Origin: an uncultured virus (IMG/VR IMGVR_UViG_2821929668_000003)
Lineage: Duplodnaviria > Heunggongvirae > Uroviricota > Caudoviricetes
Reading direction: 5' to 3' (one strand)
Virus record (IMG/VR): IMGVR_UViG_2821929668_000003
Span: 1 to 64,000 of that record
DNA length: 64,000 bases
Shown: positions 784 through 64,000 of the stretch, piece by piece
Layout of the letters: the number at the start of each line of letters is the position of its first letter
How positions within the stretch are numbered: the first letter of the stretch is position 1
The notes under the pieces: generated by a model
Databases searched by the model: none
What the model was told of the DNA's origin: nothing
Seen by the model: the letters and a program-made list of their open reading frames with translations, nothing else
Program-made: the position numbers and the translations under genes

Positions 784-1613
784 GCTCCCTTTAAAAATTT
801 AAATAATAATTTCTCACAAAAAATGTCGCAGATAATCCATCTACATATATAAAATATATTAACACATCATCAAATATATCAATTATATGCATGTACTAAT
901 TTTGTAATGTAATTTTATTAAATTTCACGTACTATATCCGATTGATAAAACCAAATTCCGTAATAAGGCCTATTCTAACCATCCATCCCCTTATCCTCTA
1001 ACCAAGTAAGTAGTAAATCCCTTATTTATTCCTCTATCTTAGCAAGTAGTTCCTCCAGGTCTTAAACAACCTCACATTTTTCATCATTTCTTCGAATTTA
1101 ATGTTGACTGAAGGTCTTGAAGGTTTTTATCATGTGGGAACGATTATGGAACACGGCTGGAAGGCAGATTTATCCCCTACTTTGACAGACTACAAAAAAA
1201 GTAATCAGTCAAAATAGATGGATAAGCGTCGTTATTTTTGCCATGCGGTCACTTATAAGGTATCCGTATGTATAGACCCTGTTCACTCAGCGATCTTCAC
1301 CGCATACATCCTTTTTCTATGGCTTGTCCTTGTAATATCGTCCCTACACGACAAACTGAATGTATTCCCTAGCACCGTAATGCTAACGATAACCACCCGA
1401 ACCTTTTAGAGAATCGTCCCTGGGCAAGTTCTCGCCCTCCCTCACTAGATGAACAGGAATCCAATGAGGGGTGCTATTTTTGTAGGCGTATACTCAGTAC
1501 CCCCTGCACGACCAACAGCTAGCCACGCCGTAACACGTTCCCCCTATATGTATAGCAGCACGGAATTACGGCTTATCAGTTTTTATTTACGTGGTATCAG
1601 GCAATTCCACGCG

Positions 1614-1686
1614 AACAAAAAACAAAAAGGCATCTCTAATTCCTAAATGGCCTGTATATCACAAGACTTCTAGGTTTAGAGATGCC
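1614..1686 (-). terminator. Intrinsic terminator/attenuator on minus strand
   Basis: GGCATCTCTAA (1629-1639)/TTAGAGATGCC (1676-1686) stem followed on minus strand by TTTTTGTTTTTTGTT. Confidence 0.65.
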
Positions 1687-1735
1687 CGGTATATATCTTT
1701 TAGACTACAAAATAATCAAATCTAGTATTTACTAG

Positions 1736-1764
1736 TTGAATTTTAGCCCAATCACAGATAAAAT
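1736..1764 (+). promoter_or_regulatory. SigA promoter of the antisense RNA
   Basis: TTGAAT (1736-1741), 17 bp, TAAAAT (1759-1764). Confidence 0.7.
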
Positions 1765-1770
1765 GGGTAT

Positions 1771-1945
1771 ATCAAATAAGCCTAGTCGAAAGGCATAATT
1801 GTTTAAGGATAGTGTTGGTGCACTACTTAAACCGAAGTCCTGCTTGGTTACAGGTTATGTCTAGTAAGTGTTGGTAGCAATTACTAGAACTGAGTCATTC
1901 CCGCTAAAGGTTGGTAGCCGATAGCATATGGGAGTGGCTTTTTTA
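1771..1945 (+). ncRNA. Counter-transcribed copy-control antisense RNA (RNA I/ctRNA-like)
   Basis: Promoter, four stem-loops each with TTGGT (YUNR) in the loop (1801-1832, 1839-1854, 1860-1888, 1893-1940), ending in a T-run. Confidence 0.7.
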
Positions 1946-2090
1946 TTTTCTGTTCATATTCAATTGTTTTATCGATCTTCGTTTATGTAAAATATCAAAT
2001 TATGTTTTGTTTTGTAGAATGATGCTTGTTGTGTACTACGTTACAACAAGCTTTATCCTTTGTAAACTGCTGGATTACGCACTTTTTTAA

Positions 2091-2437
2091 AAATATCCCT
2101 ATTTCCCTATTTCCCTATTTCTACTTATAGATATAGGGATATTTCCACTTTTCCCTATATCTATATTTCCCTATTTTCGTTATCTTTTCATCTACTAACA
2201 TCTCTATGAAATTACATATTTATTTCTTAACTCCCTCTACTTCATACATCAAAAGAATCTTATGATATCAACGTTTTTATTATTAATTACTAACTCTATG
2301 ATTCTATTGCATATACCGTACATCATTGTTATAATTTCTTTAAAGATATAGAAATATCCCTATTTCTATAGTTAGAAATATCCCTATTTCCCTATTTCTA
2401 TTTTTCCCTATTTCTATAAAGGGATATAGGGAAATTT
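2091..2437. repeat. Centromere-like (parS/parC) arrays of degenerate 8-bp repeats ATATCCCT/ATTTCCCT/ATTTCTAT in two clusters
   Basis: Tandem and inverted octamers at about 2091-2180 and 2345-2437, directly upstream of parA. Confidence 0.8.
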
Positions 2438-2464
2438 TAAAAATAAATAACTGGAGTGTTAAAA

Positions 2465-3286
2465 ATGGCTATTACAATTACGGTAGGTAATTACAAAGGT
2501 GGAGTCGGTAAGACCACGAATGCTGTATTGAACTCTTATGAATTCGCTAAAAAGGGCAAGCGTACATTACTTGTTGACCTTGATCCACAAAGTAACGCAA
2601 CCAAGTCTTTAATGTTAACAAAATCAATCCTTAATCCTGATGAAATTGTTACTGTTGAAAAAACATTAATGAAAGGAATACAAGAGGGAAACCTAGACGG
2701 CTTAGAAGTGGAAATTATGGAGAACTTACATTTACTTCCTTCTTACGTTGATTTTCAGGACTTCGCAAAATTCCTTTATAAAAATTGTTCTTCGGAGGCT
2801 GAAGAAGATCATTACTTTAAAGGATTACTTGAAAAGATAAAGCATAAATACGACTACATATTTATCGACGTACCTCCTATGTCACTAGAAGTTACAAAAA
2901 ATGCAGTTGTAGCTTCTGATTATGTTCTAATTGCTCTGCAAACACAAGAACGTTCTCTTACTGGTGCCGAGAATTATATTAATGAACTTATCAAGTTAAA
3001 AGAGCAATATGATCTTGATATTGAAGTAGTTGGCGTTCTTCCTGTCCTATTAAAAAACAACGGTAAAGTTGACGAATACATCATGGAAAATGCTCGTGAA
3101 ATATTTGGAGAAGAAAACCTATTTAAAAACATCGTCCCTCAAATGGAACGTATTAAACGATTTGATGTGAATGGTATTACTGAAAAAGATAGACATGATA
3201 TGAATGTAATTGAACTATACGAAACGATTAGTGATGAATTATTATCTCGTGTTGATATGTTTGAAAAAATGAAGGTTGGTGTGTAA
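2465..3286 (+). CDS. parA: Type Ib ParA/Soj partition ATPase
   Basis: Deviant Walker A KGGVGKTT, DLDPQ, YDYIFIDVPP. Confidence 0.95.
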   Translation: MAITITVGNYKGGVGKTTNAVLNSYEFAKKGKRTLLVDLDPQSNATKSLMLTKSILNPDEIVTVEKTLMKGIQEGNLDGLEVEIMENLHLLPSYVDFQDFAKFLYKNCSSEAEEDHYFKGLLEKIKHKYDYIFIDVPPMSLEVTKNAVVASDYVLIALQTQERSLTGAENYINELIKLKEQYDLDIEVVGVLPVLLKNNGKVDEYIMENAREIFGEENLFKNIVPQMERIKRFDVNGITEKDRHDMNVIELYETISDELLSRVDMFEKMKVGV

Positions 3287-3287
3287 T

Positions 3288-3668
3288 ATGGCAAGAACTC
3301 CTGGTTTATTAGGTCGAAAGAAAAGTAACTTTGAACCTACTGAGCCTTATGTACCGGAACAAGGACAAGCTACGACGGAAAATAAAGAGGTAGCAGCTAC
3401 AGTTACTCCTTCTCAACCTAAGACAGAAGAAAAAACTACTACTCGAAAAGAGAAAAGAATCGAGAAAATTGAACCGAAAAAGAAATTTAAAAACCAGCAA
3501 GGTAGCATTAAAATTTCTAATCAATCAAAAGAAGAACTTGAAGTATTAATGAAACTTACAAACACAAAATTCAATTATGAGATTATCGACCTGCTTATAG
3601 ATCGTTATGTAGAAAATGAGCTAACACCTGATCAGAAAAGGAAATTCAAGCTCTTAACCGAAATTTAA
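3288..3668 (+). CDS. Small centromere-binding partition adaptor (RHH-like C-terminus)
   Basis: Directly after parA, disordered N-terminus, C-terminal GSIKIS..KEELEVL..IIDLLIDRY. Confidence 0.7.
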   Translation: MARTPGLLGRKKSNFEPTEPYVPEQGQATTENKEVAATVTPSQPKTEEKTTTRKEKRIEKIEPKKKFKNQQGSIKISNQSKEELEVLMKLTNTKFNYEIIDLLIDRYVENELTPDQKRKFKLLTEI

Positions 3669-3715
3669 AAATATAGAAATATCCCTATTTCTAAATAGGG
3701 ATATTTCTATATTTT
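3668..3715. terminator. Perfect 23-bp inverted repeat built from centromere octamers (terminator and/or extra adaptor site)
   Basis: AAAATATAGAAATATCCCTATTT-ct-AAATAGGGATATTTCTATATTTT. Confidence 0.75.
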
Positions 3716-3824
3716 CACTTTTTTTCGATATATCTGTACTTAATCAACCTTCTTTAACTTATTTGAAAACACAGGTAAAACAGCTAATAATAACATTATC
3801 GTTAGCGGAAGGCATTTTAAAATT

Positions 3825-5197: not shown

Positions 5198-5788
5198 TCA
5201 CCAAAACTTCCACCACGGCTTTTTCTTCTCTTTCGCAGCAGCAACTTCGTCGCGAAACCCCTGCATTAGCCGCTTCGTTTCCTGCATCTCACGTAGTGTC
5301 TTCATAAGCGTCTCGTCTCGTGCTTCCAATCGTTTTTCCACTCGTTCATTATGCGCCATAACGCTTGCTTTGATTTCTTCATTGCCTTGCTTCGCCTGCT
5401 CACTTAATCGCTTCTCCATTGCTAACATACTCTGATTCATTTCTTGCGCCATAACGCTGTACTGCTGCTGGAGCTGTTCTTGAATATGGAATGGTATTAA
5501 ACTCGCTTCCTCCGGTTCATCTTTAATTATATCCGGATTAACTTTTTCTATTTGCTGCGCAATCATCTTCGCTGCCTTTTCTAGCGTCATACCGTCATGC
5601 TTACTAAGCTCAATTAATTTCTCAATCACCATAATGTCATTGTCTGTGTATTGGCGTCTACCCCGATTATCTTTCTTTACGACGAATTTCTCTCGTTGTA
5701 AAACTTCCATGTACTTTCTAAGGGTGCTATCACTTATTCCTAGTCGTTTATATACTTCACTAGCAGAATAAACAATCTCGTCCGTCAT
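5198..5788 (-). CDS. MerR-type HTH coiled-coil protein (DUF3967-like)
   Basis: YSASEVYKRLGISDSTLRKY HTH, coiled coil, amphipathic KKPWWKFW tail. Confidence 0.8.
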   Translation of the reverse strand: MTDEIVYSASEVYKRLGISDSTLRKYMEVLQREKFVVKKDNRGRRQYTDNDIMVIEKLIELSKHDGMTLEKAAKMIAQQIEKVNPDIIKDEPEEASLIPFHIQEQLQQQYSVMAQEMNQSMLAMEKRLSEQAKQGNEEIKASVMAHNERVEKRLEARDETLMKTLREMQETKRLMQGFRDEVAAAKEKKKPWWKFW

Positions 5789-50275: not shown

Positions 50276-51424
50276 TCAAGAATATCCCAAGTATCTTTTA
50301 GGCAATTGAGAATAAAAAATATTCCCTTTTTCCTCGAATATCTCCAGAGAGTCTTCCATTAGTTTACGATCATTGCGAGCAAGACCTAAATAAAACTTTT
50401 GAAACGCTGAAAGCCTCCCTTGCACTTTCAACAAATTCATCAATATGTCTTCTGCCTTTTTGTTATTCCCTAACTTTATTTCTAAATAGGCCTTTTCAGC
50501 AGGATGGACTTGCAAATTCCCTACCGGCTTGTCCCAATATATTTTTAGAAATACCATCGTTTGAAGAATAAGCTTCTTTTTAGCCTTTAAACGTTGATTA
50601 AATGGATCTCCTAAATTTTCTAATGATTCTTGCAGATATTTTAACGATTTTTTGTAATCACTGAAGATATATGACTCTCCGAGGTTACAAAAAGCATTTA
50701 CTCTCTGAATGTTAAATTGTGGATTTTCACCACATTGTTCAATTAACTTCAACGAAAACTCTCTACATTCATTCACATTACCGCGAAGTAAATGTATTGC
50801 AGAAAGTATTTCGATTATACGATGATTATAACTCGATTTAATAAACCGATTTTTTCTTACACTAATTTGTTTAACCCTCTCTTCTGCGATTTTTACATAA
50901 TTAAGGATAGATCTATAGTTTCCTGTATCATATAACAAATAACACATTAGTAAGTCGCACATGACACTGTTTTCTACATACTTTACTTTTTTACGAACAG
51001 CTTCTAACTGATTTAACAATTCCTCACCATTAAATCGTTCTAAACTTCTTTTATACAATATTTCATAGACAATGGCAGATTCACGATTTTTAGCATAGGA
51101 TGAACCCTTCTCCTTTTCAATCATCTTATATAACAATTCCAATTCTCCACAATAAGAAGTGTATTCTAAAGTCTCTCTAAAGCTTCCATAATCCTTTTCA
51201 GAATTCAAATTTATATACTCCATTATCATCTTTCTTCTAAGATCATGATTATCATTATATGCACACATAAGTGCGCCAGAAAATTGATAAAATTTCATAT
51301 CCCTTTTACCGCTAAAAGTCTCTGATATTGTACTTTTGCCAACTTGTAATTGTTTGGCTAATTCCCCATCAGTTATACCTATTGCAAATAAATCATCATG
51401 AAGCTTATTTAATAATCTTTTCAC
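50276..51424 (-). CDS. aimR: Arbitrium receptor AimR (HTH + TPR, RRNPP)
   Basis: N-terminal HTH, NLGESY TPR motif, SAFQ.FYLG; GTG start with AGGAGG RBS. Confidence 0.88.
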   Translation of the reverse strand: MKRLLNKLHDDLFAIGITDGELAKQLQVGKSTISETFSGKRDMKFYQFSGALMCAYNDNHDLRRKMIMEYINLNSEKDYGSFRETLEYTSYCGELELLYKMIEKEKGSSYAKNRESAIVYEILYKRSLERFNGEELLNQLEAVRKKVKYVENSVMCDLLMCYLLYDTGNYRSILNYVKIAEERVKQISVRKNRFIKSSYNHRIIEILSAIHLLRGNVNECREFSLKLIEQCGENPQFNIQRVNAFCNLGESYIFSDYKKSLKYLQESLENLGDPFNQRLKAKKKLILQTMVFLKIYWDKPVGNLQVHPAEKAYLEIKLGNNKKAEDILMNLLKVQGRLSAFQKFYLGLARNDRKLMEDSLEIFEEKGNIFYSQLPKRYLGYS

Positions 51425-51525
51425 TGTGTTGCTCCTCCTTGCTGGAACAAAAGACACGTTATACCCAATTCGTTACGTTTAAGGAAAACGCGTCACTACA
51501 TTCAAAAGATGTGTTATAATTTATG

Positions 51526-51617: not shown

Positions 51618-51761
51618 ACGTCCGTATATTTTATTATTTTCATAATATCATATTTTTCCTAAAATTCAGTCGTGTGGTTATCAGAAAAATGTTGAGAAAG
51701 TTTGAAAATAGCTGTATATCAATGCTTACGGATAAGGATACGCAATAGTGCATCTTTCTGT

Positions 51762-52388
51762 ATGAAATACCCAGGTGTATATGTTGATGATAAAGGGAAT
51801 TTCTTTTATCAATCAGAAGTTGGTATTGATCGGATTACAGGAAAACGAATACGAAAAAAAGGAAGAGAAGACGTTAATGGAAAGCCCTTTTCTTCCGCAT
51901 TCGAAGCTAACAAAGAGTTAATTCGATTAAAAAGAGAGTATCATAAAGTTAACAGTTACGCTAATTATAAAATGACTTACGAGCAATTTATGAATAATGT
52001 GTATATACCTTACTATCAAACAGAAGTTGAAGAAAGTGACTTTGTGTTTAGCTACAATGGGCTACCAATGATTAAATCAACGATAGGTCGAATTATTGAA
52101 CGATATTCCAAACTTGCAGGAGTGAAGAAGATACAAGCGAAGGGATTGCGTCATTCTCATGCTTCATTTCTTATCAATGAATTCAAAGTATCGGTGCTCG
52201 TTTTATCTCAACGTATGGGACATTCAAGTCCAGAGATTACTTTAAAACACTATGCTCATATGTGGAGCGGTGCTGATACTGTAATAGCTGATGCAATGAC
52301 TGGAAATATTGAAATCAAAACGGCTGAACGGACACAAATTAAATTTAATGGTAATCAAGCATTAAAGAAAAGTAATGTAAGAGGGTAA
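51762..52388 (+). pseudogene. Tyrosine integrase with large internal deletion
   Basis: Arm-binding N-terminus fused directly to LRHSHAS...MGH...Y catalytic end; core-binding domain and first catalytic Arg missing. Confidence 0.8.
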
Positions 52389-52607: not shown

Positions 52608-54518
52608 ATGGATGTAAGGGATCTTTTAATATTAAATGGATTTATTCCAAAAGAATTACCCTGTGAGTTTGTTGCGAAAAATTTACATAAAATTGACTTG
52701 GGTGTTTTAGGTTCAGGAGAGCTAAAAAAATGGTCCAAACTTATAGAGTTTAGTATTCCTAAGAATGATAGTTTCAGAAGAGTTTGTTCAATTGTTCATC
52801 CACTACACTTTGTTCAATTAGCAAATGAAATTAAGAATGAATGGTCAAATTTAGAGACTTATTTTCGAAATTCAAATGTATCTCTTACAACTCCAATTAT
52901 AGAGGAAAATGGTATTGTTTCAAAATATAGTATGTCAGAAACAACACAAATAAGGATTTCTAATTTAAGTTCTAAAAAATATATTTTAAAGGTTGATATT
53001 AACAGATATTATCCAAGTATTTATACTCATTCTATACCTTGGGCATTACACGGGAAAAAAATTGCTAAAGATAAAATGAAAGATCATAGTTTACTTGGAA
53101 ATAAGTTAGATACATTAATTCGTAATATGCAAGATGGACAAACTATTGGTATTCCAATTGGTCCGCAAAGTTCATTCATTATTCAAGAAATAATTGGTAC
53201 AGCTATTGATATGCAATTTAAAAATGCAATGGGTAAAGAAGTTAAGGGTTATAGATATACAGATGATATGGAATACTACTTTGATTCTCATGAGGAAGCA
53301 AATCATGCTTTAACTGTCATGAACCAAGTATTAAAAAATTATGAGTTAGACTTAAATGTTGAAAAGACAAAAATAATCAAACTTCCTCAACTTATTGAAC
53401 CTGATTGGCTATTTTATTTTAAGAAGTTTAAATTTAGGAAATCCAACAAACCAGAAGAACATATAAAATTACAGTTAGTTGACCTTAAAGAATATTTTAA
53501 TAAGATTTTTTATTATAAAGATTTAACTAATGACGTAGGTATTTCTAATTTTGCACTAAAGTGTTTAGGGAAAGTAGTTATCCAAAAAGAAAATTGGGGG
53601 CTATTTGAATCTTTGCTATTACAAACAATACTAATTGATTCTAGAGCAATTCCAAAAGTATTTGAAATAATGGAAGCTTATAAATATAGAGGTTATCCAT
53701 TAAATTTAGATAAAATTAGCGAATCTGTAAATTCAATTATAAAAGAGCACATTCAACTTAGAGGTGACTATGAGGTTATTTGGGCATTAAGTTTAGCAAA
53801 TAAATTTAAATTAAATATTACAGAGGATGTTACTTCCCTTTTATTAAATAATAATAATGCTCTTATAAACATATTGGTAATGGTTTTAAAGGATAAGGGT
53901 CAGTTATTAGGAAATAAAGATTTTTCATTTTATGAAGAAATATTGAGTGATAATGATTTGTATGGTAAATCATGGATGTTTCTATATGAATGTTGTAAAA
54001 ATGGTTGGTTAAATAAAGATAGTAAGATATTAAAAAGGGATAAATTTTTTAATATCTTACTAAAGAATCATGTTTCCTTTATAGATTCTAATTATTCAGT
54101 AGTTAAGTCTAATATTAATATACAAATTGTTAATTTGTGCATGGAAAATATTAGTGGTTTAGAAATTAACAAAGTTTATAAAAATATTCTAGATAAGTAT
54201 TCTTATAATTTAGAAGAAGAACATGAGCAAGAATTATTTAAAGAACTTATTGACCTATTAAAACTAAAAATTAGTGAACAAAATTTATTTGATGCGAATT
54301 TAATTAGAAATCCAGAAGAAGCTGAGGTAGTAGAAGAAACTGAGGAGTCAGAAGAAGCCGAAGTGTTAGAAGAAACTGCGGCATCANNGGCATCAGAAGA
54401 AGTCGAAGAGTCAAAAAGAACAAAGGAAGCTTATAATTGGTTAAATAGCTTTTTTGCTACTGATATTCGAAATTCAAATGATATTGACTTGGAAGAAACG
54501 GATATAGATTATTTTTAA
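52608..54518 (+). CDS. Abi/UG class-1-type defence reverse transcriptase with helical C-terminal domain and acidic tail
   Basis: DINRYYPSIYTHSIPWA, GIPIGP, YRYTDD, LN.EKT motifs; no group II intron or retron structure seen. Confidence 0.88.
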   Translation: MDVRDLLILNGFIPKELPCEFVAKNLHKIDLGVLGSGELKKWSKLIEFSIPKNDSFRRVCSIVHPLHFVQLANEIKNEWSNLETYFRNSNVSLTTPIIEENGIVSKYSMSETTQIRISNLSSKKYILKVDINRYYPSIYTHSIPWALHGKKIAKDKMKDHSLLGNKLDTLIRNMQDGQTIGIPIGPQSSFIIQEIIGTAIDMQFKNAMGKEVKGYRYTDDMEYYFDSHEEANHALTVMNQVLKNYELDLNVEKTKIIKLPQLIEPDWLFYFKKFKFRKSNKPEEHIKLQLVDLKEYFNKIFYYKDLTNDVGISNFALKCLGKVVIQKENWGLFESLLLQTILIDSRAIPKVFEIMEAYKYRGYPLNLDKISESVNSIIKEHIQLRGDYEVIWALSLANKFKLNITEDVTSLLLNNNNALINILVMVLKDKGQLLGNKDFSFYEEILSDNDLYGKSWMFLYECCKNGWLNKDSKILKRDKFFNILLKNHVSFIDSNYSVVKSNINIQIVNLCMENISGLEINKVYKNILDKYSYNLEEEHEQELFKELIDLLKLKISEQNLFDANLIRNPEEAEVVEETEESEEAEVLEETAASXASEEVEESKRTKEAYNWLNSFFATDIRNSNDIDLEETDIDYF

Positions 54519-63295: not shown

Positions 63296-64000
63296 TTACT
63301 TAATAACTTCATTAAGCCATTCGGGTTTGATTTGTTCACCTTGAACCAATCGTAACTCCCTAAACAAAAAAACTAAATCCGCCCCTGAAAATAGCTTTAC
63401 AGGATATCCATCCTGATATACTTCCTCCTGAGCCTGTTTTGAATAATATGAAGTTGTAACAAAGATACCATATTGTCCACGAGATAACCGTGCCACTAAG
63501 CGTGATAGATGCCTTGGCTCAACCCTATTTTTCCTGCCAAACCTTTTTGCTTCCCCCAGAAAATTTATATCATAGGCCAAGGGATATGGTAAGCTAAAAT
63601 GCCCTATAAAATCGAATCCCCCATCTTTAGTCGGCCTTGTTTGCGTAATAGAGTGGGTTACATCTTTTAATTGTCGAAATAAAGCTACCGTTACTGCTTC
63701 AAATTGTATGGGAGATAGCGAAACTAACTGTTCCAATATTTTAGCATCTGGACTTCCTTCTTTGGGTAATTGACTATCCAGCGTTCTTATTTTATTTTTC
63801 CACACATGCAATTTGTTTATCTTACCATTTTTGTACTCTCTCCATGAAGAAGGTGCATGCTCATCTATAACTTTGATCTCCTCAAAATCATTTGCTCTTG
63901 CTCGATTATGTAACCAAGTAATATCTACTTCTTCAATATCAAGTATTGATAGGTGACATCTATAATTTTTTATTGGTAAACCACTTGTATTATCTACAAA
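63296..64000 (-). CDS. Mrr-fold modification-dependent restriction endonuclease (MspJI/AspBHI-like), 5' end beyond the window
   Basis: DGGFDF..GEAK, SRLVARL, FVTTS..S.QAQ.E..D.YP; frame open to the window edge. Confidence 0.75.
   Translation of the reverse strand, partial: FVDNTSGLPIKNYRCHLSILDIEEVDITWLHNRARANDFEEIKVIDEHAPSSWREYKNGKINKLHVWKNKIRTLDSQLPKEGSPDAKILEQLVSLSPIQFEAVTVALFRQLKDVTHSITQTRPTKDGGFDFIGHFSLPYPLAYDINFLGEAKRFGRKNRVEPRHLSRLVARLSRGQYGIFVTTSYYSKQAQEEVYQDGYPVKLFSGADLVFLFRELRLVQGEQIKPEWLNEVIK

Follow-up and report, generated by a model that had tools for sequence, protein, structure and literature searches.

A candidate initiator-free replicon of the pLS20 type, with a covarying folded RNA domain and a countertranscript, in a Bacillus phage-plasmid and its plasmid relatives

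The 64,000-nucleotide (nt) stretch of DNA analysed here (the window) comprises the initial 64 kb of the 71,051-base IMG/VR record of an uncultured tailed virus (IMGVR_UViG_2821929668_000003; Caudoviricetes), and it carries, beside a partition (par) operon, a segment free of open reading frames (ORFs) at positions 917-2070. It is proposed that this module is the replicon of the plasmid state, namely an initiator-free theta origin of the pLS20 type (class E) under countertranscript control, a reading to which we assign a probability of roughly 60%. From the arrangement of the sequence we infer that the module replicates, that it is transcribed on both strands, and that priming and attenuation are involved. 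The module and its central domain comprise the following features:

917 to 2070, no strand assigned: the whole ORF-free module, a putative replication and copy-control cassette, with edges from blastn
1158 to 1515, minus strand: core folded RNA domain of 12 helices, closed by the pairing of 1503-1507 with 1164-1168 (covariation, alifold)
1451 to 1457, minus strand: 5' partner of a pseudoknot, in a hairpin loop (pairing conservation)
1278 to 1284, minus strand: 3' partner of the pseudoknot, 7 base pairs (bp) (pairing conservation)

Homologues, which a preliminary description of this DNA had left to a BLAST comparison, define a conserved and discrete module beside par: positions 950-2450 are matched in 93 plasmid records, all from Bacillus (megablast), and across about 70 loci the blastn edges are sharp, at 917-921 and 2066-2070. 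With a 5.2-kb query, many plasmids (for example NC_010183.1) have exactly 917-2066/2070 beside another neighbour, other plasmids have par (2037-3698) without the module, and the neighbours on either side vary while the module persists. It is carried by about 100 plasmids and phage-plasmids of the Bacillus cereus group, and in a sensitive search the core (1100-1720) was matched in 101 records, of which 98 are from Bacillus and one each from Peribacillus, Pseudalkalibacillus and Planococcus. The core is also present in 7-16 kb plasmids of Bacillus, Peribacillus, Pseudalkalibacillus, Planococcus and Paenibacillus, and an exact core 24-mer occurs in 62 IMG/VR viral contigs and in nine contigs of species-representative genomes, one of them a 4.6-kb Paenibacillus contig; every contig bearing this 24-mer is at most 87 kb long. 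Named carriers are pALH1, pLVP1401, pE33L54, pBWB404 and the 52-kb G9241 element. The minireplicon of the first four is given as 'NA' in the available part of a 2013 survey (PMC4219350), and in the available part of a 2021 survey of plasmid-prophages only ParA-Ib and a ribbon-helix-helix protein appear as plasmid-type genes in the groups with the G9241 element (PMC8026635).

The preliminary description had noted about 600 nt of ORF-free sequence richer in guanine plus cytosine (GC), and this is borne out: GC content is 0.44-0.52 at 1300-1600, compared with about 0.2-0.35 around it, the plus strand has more C than G, and no ORF longer than 89 amino acids is found in any of 71 module homologues, nor is any ORF conserved among them. 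Homologues with an intact rep ORF at this place, which had been considered at the outset, are likewise lacking among these 71. A 63-amino-acid ORF (1218-1409) is retained in 22-31 of the 71 and a 37-amino-acid minus-strand ORF is broken in most of 14 distant sequences, so that a small conserved peptide or type I toxin is ruled out. Conservation among 68 close sequences is 95-99.9% over 1100-1700 and reaches 99.9% at 1320-1400. A decayed rep gene, or hairpins arising by chance, would be suggested by the position beside par and by nothing more, and this explanation is refuted by the conservation at 1320-1400, by the absence of any shared ORF remnant and by covariation far above the controls. Rfam gave nothing near a gathering score on either strand of the module.

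The covariation analysis of the core was based on 14 diverse homologues, including the window, pALH1, locus L015, four Bacillus plasmids of 7.3-7.7 kb, pCI-14, a viral contig, and plasmids of Paenibacillus, Peribacillus, Pseudalkalibacillus and Planococcus; the fourteenth sequence was L005 in the scripted runs and pLM14 in the alignment termed A3. RNAalifold yielded -78.4 kcal/mol for the minus strand and -33.4 kcal/mol for the plus strand, whereas column shuffles gave -3.7 and -1.1, respectively. The A3 consensus (window 1515 to 1158) has 77 pairs, 30 of which show compensatory double changes, compared with 13.0 ± 2.2 in shuffles (0/500), and 98.5% of its cells are paired as against 38-46% when the partners are slid. 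Cells of the structure include 166 G.U and only 3 A.C combinations, and on the plus strand the same structure is 83.3% paired. The 7-bp pseudoknot pairing, already noted as a long-range repeat in the preliminary description, occurs in all 14 sequences, with one of its pairs being AU in eight and GC in six. The hairpins proposed at the outset and the long-range CCTGTTCA/TGAACAGG pair all belong to this covarying consensus, the attribution of structure to the minus strand agrees with the G.U excess and the 30 compensated pairs, and covariation measured against shuffles, in both the core and the small RNA described below, exceeds the shuffles in each case (0/500). Taken together, these data support selection of the core structure on the minus strand.

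By sequence, G.U in RNA is indistinguishable from G.T in folded single-stranded DNA, and the fold might accordingly act as minus-strand single-stranded DNA. In that case it would be a single-strand initiation signal or a single-strand origin, at which RNA polymerase or a primosome is recruited to begin synthesis of the lagging strand or synthesis after transfer. The strand-specific pairing fits this equally well, and structure and dependence on orientation are features of the single-strand origins of Gram-positive plasmids. We nevertheless regard it as very improbable, given that the domain lies directly downstream of a promoter, an antisense RNA and a terminator, that the small plasmids gave no match to a rolling-circle Rep (Rep_1, Rep_2, Rep_trans or similar), and that single-strand origins are not known to reach the size and complexity of about 350 nt with a pseudoknot. 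Action as RNA is favoured because promoter, antisense RNA and terminator share the strand of the core.

A link to replication comes from pLS20. According to the available part of a 2021 paper on the pLS20 family, a module of about 1.1 kb in pLS20cat (64,501-65,745) contains all information for autonomous replication and no typical replication gene (PMC8557374), and in the available part of a review pLS20 stands alone in class E, without Rep, its minireplicons replicating in a polA5 strain (PMC4490491). A covariance model, R1, made from the central 178 positions of the core (52 pairs), matches pLS20 over its full length at record positions 65,090-65,338, inside the replication module, with 25.0 bits and an E-value of about 6e-6, which is rough; the best unrelated match in this 76-kb search scored 7.9 bits. 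Three of three further origins of the pLS20 family (about 80% identity) were matched with 22.1-28.7 bits, position and strand being the same, while all other R1 matches were at most 13.4 bits, and at most 7.9 in unrelated DNA. The relation must be distant, because blastn and nhmmer detect no similarity between the module and pLS20 and the covariance model alone reveals it.

The layout of pLS20 is the same but mirrored, with a forward promoter, an antisense promoter with two terminators, a hairpin followed by a T-run, and a GC-rich folded domain. Like the module, ori-pLS20 is about 1.1 kb long, has no replication gene and lies beside a partition operon, as stated in the available parts of both sources (PMC8557374, PMC4490491), and pLS20 likewise receives no replicon type in MOB-suite, as is the case for the small carriers here. 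There are differences as well: the par partner is Alp7A/R in pLS20 and ParA here, and pLS20 belongs to hosts of the B. subtilis group whereas the hosts of the module are the B. cereus group and further Bacillales, where tailed phage-plasmids and 7-kb plasmids are among its carriers. Moreover, a consensus DnaA box is reported for pLS20, whereas TTATCCACA is absent from 900-2110 at up to one mismatch; three sites with two mismatches occur there, two of which are arms of RNA helices. Covariance model and layout together support the view that the module is a distant relative of the pLS20 replication module. Second, weaker R1 matches (10.0 and 13.4 bits) lie just downstream of the main one at L089:1004-1161 and L091:992-1118, and these could represent a partial duplication of the fold.

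To the right of the core, the elements that would control its transcription are arranged as follows:

1728 to 1764, plus strand: promoter of a small RNA (sRNA), TTTACTAGTTGAAT ... TAAAAT (consensus match, conservation)
1769 to 1949, plus strand: countertranscript sRNA of about 177 nt with five hairpins and its own terminator (fold, covariation, loop words)
1616 to 1687, minus strand: intrinsic terminator, a candidate attenuator, between the sRNA gene and the core (fold z-score, conservation)
1963 to 1991, minus strand: proximal promoter-like site, TTTACA-17-AACAAT (consensus match), with a predicted start about 13 nt beyond the sRNA terminator
2038 to 2066, minus strand: distal promoter-like site, TTTACA-17-TAACGT (consensus match), present in nearly all close homologues
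2024 to 2060, plus strand: terminator-like hairpin at the right edge of the module, followed by a full T-run in most homologues

The promoter of the sRNA, TTGAAT-17-TAAAAT at 1736-1764, matches the consensus at 9 of 12 positions, and its upstream TTTACTAGTTGA and its -10 element are retained even in distant plasmids; the promoter together with a shorter form of the RNA also occurs in distant plasmids from four more genera. Five hairpins form in the RNA (1769-1950), at -55.3 kcal/mol (z = -3.45), and it ends in GGC and a T-run at 1936-1949. Its loops present TTGGT (UUGGU in the RNA) four times, at 1815, 1844, 1871 and 1911, that is four occurrences in 182 nt of sRNA compared with 0.24 expected, and both copies of GTTGGTAGC in the 64-kb window fall inside it. 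Among 58 distinct homologues the consensus of 40 pairs is paired in 98.4% of cells, as against 36-52% when partners are slid, and double changes affect 6 pairs and 53 cells, compared with 2.6 and 16.9 in shuffles (0/500). These data support a genuine small RNA, as sequence comparison can indicate; the promoter, the RNA, its U-run end and the UUGGU in four loops had been recognised in the preliminary description, which had counted four hairpins rather than five.

The most variable part of the module is formed by the sRNA stem-loops (SL) SL2-SL4 at 1820-1900. Mean pairwise identity among 65 close homologues is 94.5% for the core and 77.7% for SL2-SL4, and in two elements from a single source genome the corresponding values are 94.3% and 76.5%. 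An invariant core beside variable stem-loops that preserve their structure is the look of antisense copy-control and incompatibility determinants in other plasmid families, and SL2-SL4, being more variable than the core, by analogy behave as an antisense specificity determinant would be expected to.

At least one minus-strand promoter-like site lies past the sRNA terminator in every lineage, from which transcription could be directed leftward. The opposing promoter placed at 2066-2038 at the outset does exist as a site and is kept in nearly all close homologues, its predicted start being 88-109 nt beyond the sRNA terminator, but it lies inside the plus-strand terminator-like hairpin (2024-2051), and a second site is closer to the sRNA gene (1991-1963), which occurs only in homologues without a 21-nt insertion. 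Seven distant plasmids instead have TTGATT-17/18-TAAAAT, or a variant such as TTGCTT or TTCAAG-16-TATAAT, with a predicted start at +21 to +26. These minus-strand starts are predictions from consensus matches. A search of RNA-seq data returned 24 runs; the unstranded Logan contigs of four of them, 0.8-12.6 kb long, break at repeats that co-resident plasmids have in common. In a leftward transcript from any such site, the first 180-260 nt or so would be complementary to the sRNA, followed by the terminator and then by the folded domain. The minus-strand terminator first placed at 1686-1614 stands: its hairpin (1629-1686) and U-run (1616-1628) reach -30.8 kcal/mol (z = -3.96), and the position of hairpin and T-run is kept in distant plasmids with different stem sequences.

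This organisation invites comparison with two classes of plasmid copy control. With the class B theta plasmid ColE1 (RNA I/RNA II) the module would have in common the lack of an initiator protein and the underlying logic, in which a multi-hairpin antisense RNA pairs with the first part of a long non-coding RNA transcribed towards the origin, and the loop words GUUGGUAGC (loop 2 of ColE1 RNA I) and UUGGUAGC (loop 3) are the same as those of SL4 and SL5 here. The Rfam model RNAI (RF00106) has no match to the window at E-values up to 10, whereas it scores 73.8 bits on ColE1, and the shared loop word is therefore taken as convergence on a fast-pairing loop rather than homology. Thus, of the ColE1-like character first ascribed to this locus, the logic and the loop word are retained and membership of the family is not. 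ColE1 also differs in having no terminator between target and origin, where the module has one, in its host phylum, and in having a Rop gene, which the module lacks. Dependence on DNA polymerase I, as in ColE1, may not hold for the module, because pLS20 minireplicons replicate in a polA5 strain according to the part of the review available (PMC4490491).

In pT181, pIP501 and pAMbeta1, rep expression is controlled by countertranscript-driven attenuation, and the module resembles these plasmids in having an antisense RNA over the putative leader and an intrinsic terminator just downstream on the same strand. In pT181 and pIP501, however, a rep mRNA lies behind the terminator, while in the module it is a folded non-coding RNA, and control of the pT181/pIP501 type relies on an antiterminator pairing of which the module shows no conserved counterpart.

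If the reading as an initiator-free origin is correct, host RNA polymerase would start at a minus-strand promoter right of the sRNA gene (1963-1991 and/or 2038-2066) and run leftward. The first 180 nt or so of this transcript would be complementary to the sRNA (1769-1949), whose UUGGU loops, of the YUNR type, would provide fast contact, and pairing with the sRNA would promote a stop at the intrinsic terminator (1687-1616). Transcripts continuing beyond this point would fold into the pseudoknotted domain of about 350 nt (1515-1158), and the folded RNA would in cis open or prime the DNA at the left end, at about 985-1140, with host replication proteins following. The variable stem-loops of the sRNA would determine incompatibility specificity, and the neighbouring par operon would segregate the copies. 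The left-end target would include direct repeats, a TTGAC cluster and an A/T tract, as represented by two features:

994 to 1014 and 1030 to 1050, no strand assigned: two imperfect 21-nt direct repeats, iteron-like, with 81% identity and a spacing of 36
1104 to 1133, plus strand: promoter-like TTGACT-18-TATCAT, or a TTGA(C/A) repeat cluster with an A/T tract (10 of 12 consensus positions)

A similar CCTCTATCTTAG.TAGTGGTAG pair is found at the equivalent place in distant plasmids, two-copy repeats being weak evidence, and the element at 1104-1133 lies at the 3' side of the folded RNA, with TTGAC invariant in 14 of 14 diverse sequences. To judge from these motifs, the left end (994-1050 and 1104-1133) may serve as the actual origin, as an array of protein-binding sites or as a convergent promoter.

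Several observations weigh against an initiator-free, RNA-controlled origin. The invariant plus-strand TTGAC...TATCAT at 1104-1133 is left without explanation by it, and promoter-like matches in the region number 6, compared with 7.1 ± 3.0 in shuffles, that is without excess. Folding of the nascent leader revealed no conserved antiterminator; the sole candidate (1834-1845 with 1659-1676) forms in only one of the two transcripts that were modelled, homologues of the pALH1 type lack it, and the terminator is strong and forms in silico whether or not the sRNA-bound region is blocked. Because of this, attenuation is a reading of the layout rather than a demonstrated switch. With respect to pLS20, the negative blastn and nhmmer comparisons, the short calibration of R1 that makes its E-values rough, and the statement in the available part of the pLS20-family paper that the initiation mechanism of pLS20 is largely unknown (PMC8557374) have to be considered, as does the ambiguity between G.U and G.T noted above. 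To these are added the replication-related proteins encoded by some carriers.

These proteins form the basis of an alternative in which the module is an origin with RNA copy control that depends on an element-encoded initiator acting in trans and differing by lineage, the direct repeats at 994-1050 being its binding sites. The initiators proposed are the phage replisome organiser and DnaC-like loader in the window, RepA_N in pCI-14 and pLM14, and small winged helix-turn-helix (wHTH) or HTH_11 proteins in the 7.5-kb plasmids. The iteron-like repeats and the TTGAC cluster left of the core would suit such a protein. A RepA_N-type gene adjoins the module, reading toward it, in both pCI-14 and pLM14, and a 16-kb plasmid (L082) has a 'replication protein'. 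Small wHTH proteins are encoded by L003, L078 and L005 (HTH_36 in L005), those of L003 and L078 weakly resembling the N-termini of phage initiators (E 1e-4 to 7e-7). In the window itself, Pfam identifies a phage-type initiator-like gene, with a Phg_2220_C protein and an IstB/DnaC-like loader at 42.2-43.8 kb, and a Replic_Relax/FtsK pair at 7.2-9.0 kb (the Replic_Relax gene at 7.2 kb), so that the earlier statement that no rep gene is present is valid for the module and does not extend to the window. The phage replication genes of known phage-plasmids usually serve lytic replication, and we infer that they may do so here.

Two further proteins are relevant in this context. An HTH_11-like protein of about 170-200 amino acids is encoded directly beside the module in a family of plasmids of about 7.5 kb, and MerR-HTH proteins with DUF3967 (window 5198-5788, minus strand; also L001, L005, L082, L083, L084 and L085) recur a few kb from the module in many larger carriers and are not found in the 7.5-kb plasmids; both the adjoining gene and the recurrence speak for an initiator in trans, and the MerR/DUF3967 protein could be a regulator or partner of the module. 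The HTH_11-like genes lie in five plasmids:

L003: 3968 to 4576
L004: 2544 to 3119
L012: 1192 to 1761
L079: 1925 to 2437
L080: 1423 to 1929

Among 191 relatives of this protein, many of which are on contigs of about 7-7.7 kb from Priestia, Peribacillus and Paenibacillus, none is named SpbA, and that identity was discarded; the relatives point to a widespread family of cryptic plasmids.

An initiator in trans is nonetheless considered unlikely. No protein is common to all module carriers compared (11 elements, namely 10 plasmids and the window), the most widely shared being a serine recombinase in 8 of the 11. No replication-family match was found among the 24 ORFs of at least 70 amino acids in L079 and L080, two of the four small plasmids scanned in full. 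Moreover, both flanking neighbours differ between carriers of the module, and the related pLS20 module is reported, in the part of the source available, to need no replication gene (PMC8557374). An initiator-free origin also agrees with the position of the core within the sole long ORF-free gap of L003, L004, L078, L079 and L080 (7.3-7.7 kb), L081 and L083, the small carriers with the core in their only long ORF-free gap including a 16-kb Peribacillus plasmid and pCI-14, and with a 33-kb non-phage bacteriocin plasmid that has module and par without a classical rep gene. MOB-suite assigns no replicon type to these small carriers. A Rep or TubZ replicon beyond the window, which had been raised as a possibility, was not found among the five largest ORFs in the last 7 kb of the record.

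A different alternative is that the module specifies a large non-coding RNA with a role outside replication, for example in lifestyle control of the phage-plasmid, in exclusion of related elements or as a scaffold, with the sRNA and terminator merely setting the level of this RNA and other genes replicating the element. The pseudoknotted fold is more complex than a primer would seem to need, and phage-type replication genes are present in the window. On the other hand, the module is a common element of small cryptic plasmids without a recognisable replicon, all contigs on which it was detected are of plasmid size, 65 of 66 loci show linkage to par, and it is akin to a replication module reported to be sufficient in the part of the pLS20 paper available (PMC8557374), which together make a role outside replication decidedly unlikely.

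The linkage to par concerns the following neighbour, which lies outside the module:

2456 to 3668, plus strand: partition operon, with a ParA-family ATPase gene (2456-3286; Pfam AAA_31/CbiA) and then a small second gene

A ParA-family gene lies right of the module in the 65 loci just mentioned, the 66 being those with enough flank, and belongs to two unrelated lineages, 28 having at least 80% identity to the ParA of the window and 37 less than 50%; the module is thus linked to partition function and not to one gene. Arrays of ATATCCCTATTTC, direct and inverted, flank the operon at 2090-2180, 2340-2440 and 3665-3718 and are probably centromere or operator sites, to judge from their sequence; Rfam gave only spurious miRNA-like matches on the palindrome at 3665-3718.

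A more far-reaching form of the initiator-free reading, to which we would give somewhat less than even odds, is that the pseudoknotted RNA of about 350 nt is itself the initiator, an 'RNA Rep' that in cis opens and primes the origin with no dedicated protein, and that the module and ori-pLS20 form a broad and hitherto unrecognised Bacillales superfamily of RNA-initiated theta replicons. If so, conjugative plasmids, tailed phage-plasmids and 7-kb cryptic plasmids would all rely on one family, the countertranscript and terminator switch would provide copy control, and the sRNA stem-loops would constitute an incompatibility code.

Theta replication without an initiator has been described in Gram-positive bacteria from the 1990s onward, with pLS20 and the pHT1030 replicon of B. 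thuringiensis as examples, the latter having a minimal region of about 1 kb without an ORF and forming the basis of the pHT304, pHT315 and pHT370 vectors. A Rep-independent RNA replicon in Bacillus is consequently less new than the preliminary description had supposed. The pHT1030 replicon may belong to the same family as the module, and a search of an E. coli genome collection for a shuttle vector with a related origin gave no match. The phage vB_BceS-IEBH was considered as a carrier and discarded, since it has no match to the module and a different replicon; in the available part of the report on it, its self-replicating fragment is said to hold a replication-protein ORF (PMC4113786). The full-text literature searched contains no description of the module or of an RNA in pLS20-type origins, and papers of 1992 and 1995 may describe transcripts. 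What seems new relative to the literature read is a large, covarying, pseudoknotted RNA common to these origins, as well as the finding that tailed phage-plasmids and small cryptic plasmids from several genera carry it.

Such an RNA with its antisense regulator offers a concrete, mutable object for the question of how pLS20 initiates replication. An initiator-free replicon at this place would assign a replicon to many plasmids and phage-plasmids of the B. cereus group (pALH1, pLVP1401, pE33L54, pBWB404 and the pBFH_1 type), would cover small carriers that replicon-typing tools miss, and would account for the plasmid lifestyle of a phage backbone in which only a par operon has been annotated. 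It would also provide a compact, protein-free origin of 1.15 kb with tunable specificity for Bacillus vectors.

The element as a whole has the gene set of a siphovirus phage-plasmid in Pfam scans of the window, with terminase and portal genes at 29.3-32.2 kb, a lysin gene and a RecU gene. The record is labelled as a provirus in IMG/VR, yet the window carries par and the module, and its first 5.2 kb are 96.7-98.7% identical to an 87.6-kb circular plasmid of Bacillus toyonensis. Because of this near-identity, together with par and the module, an extrachromosomal phage-plasmid is more likely than an integrated prophage. An AimR-family (arbitrium) receptor is encoded at 50276-51457 on the minus strand, and one is annotated in pALH1 as well, for which reason the element probably uses arbitrium-type signalling in the lysis-lysogeny decision. 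A protein of 636 amino acids with an RVT_1 reverse-transcriptase domain is encoded at 52608-54518 on the plus strand, adjoining a truncated integrase-like ORF (51702-52388) and a weak GIY-YIG ORF, and it could be a defence-type or retron-like reverse transcriptase carried by the phage-plasmid. Finally, the gene for an AspBHI-N/Mrr-type restriction endonuclease of 389 amino acids spans the end of the window (63296-64000, continued at L088:297-1466).

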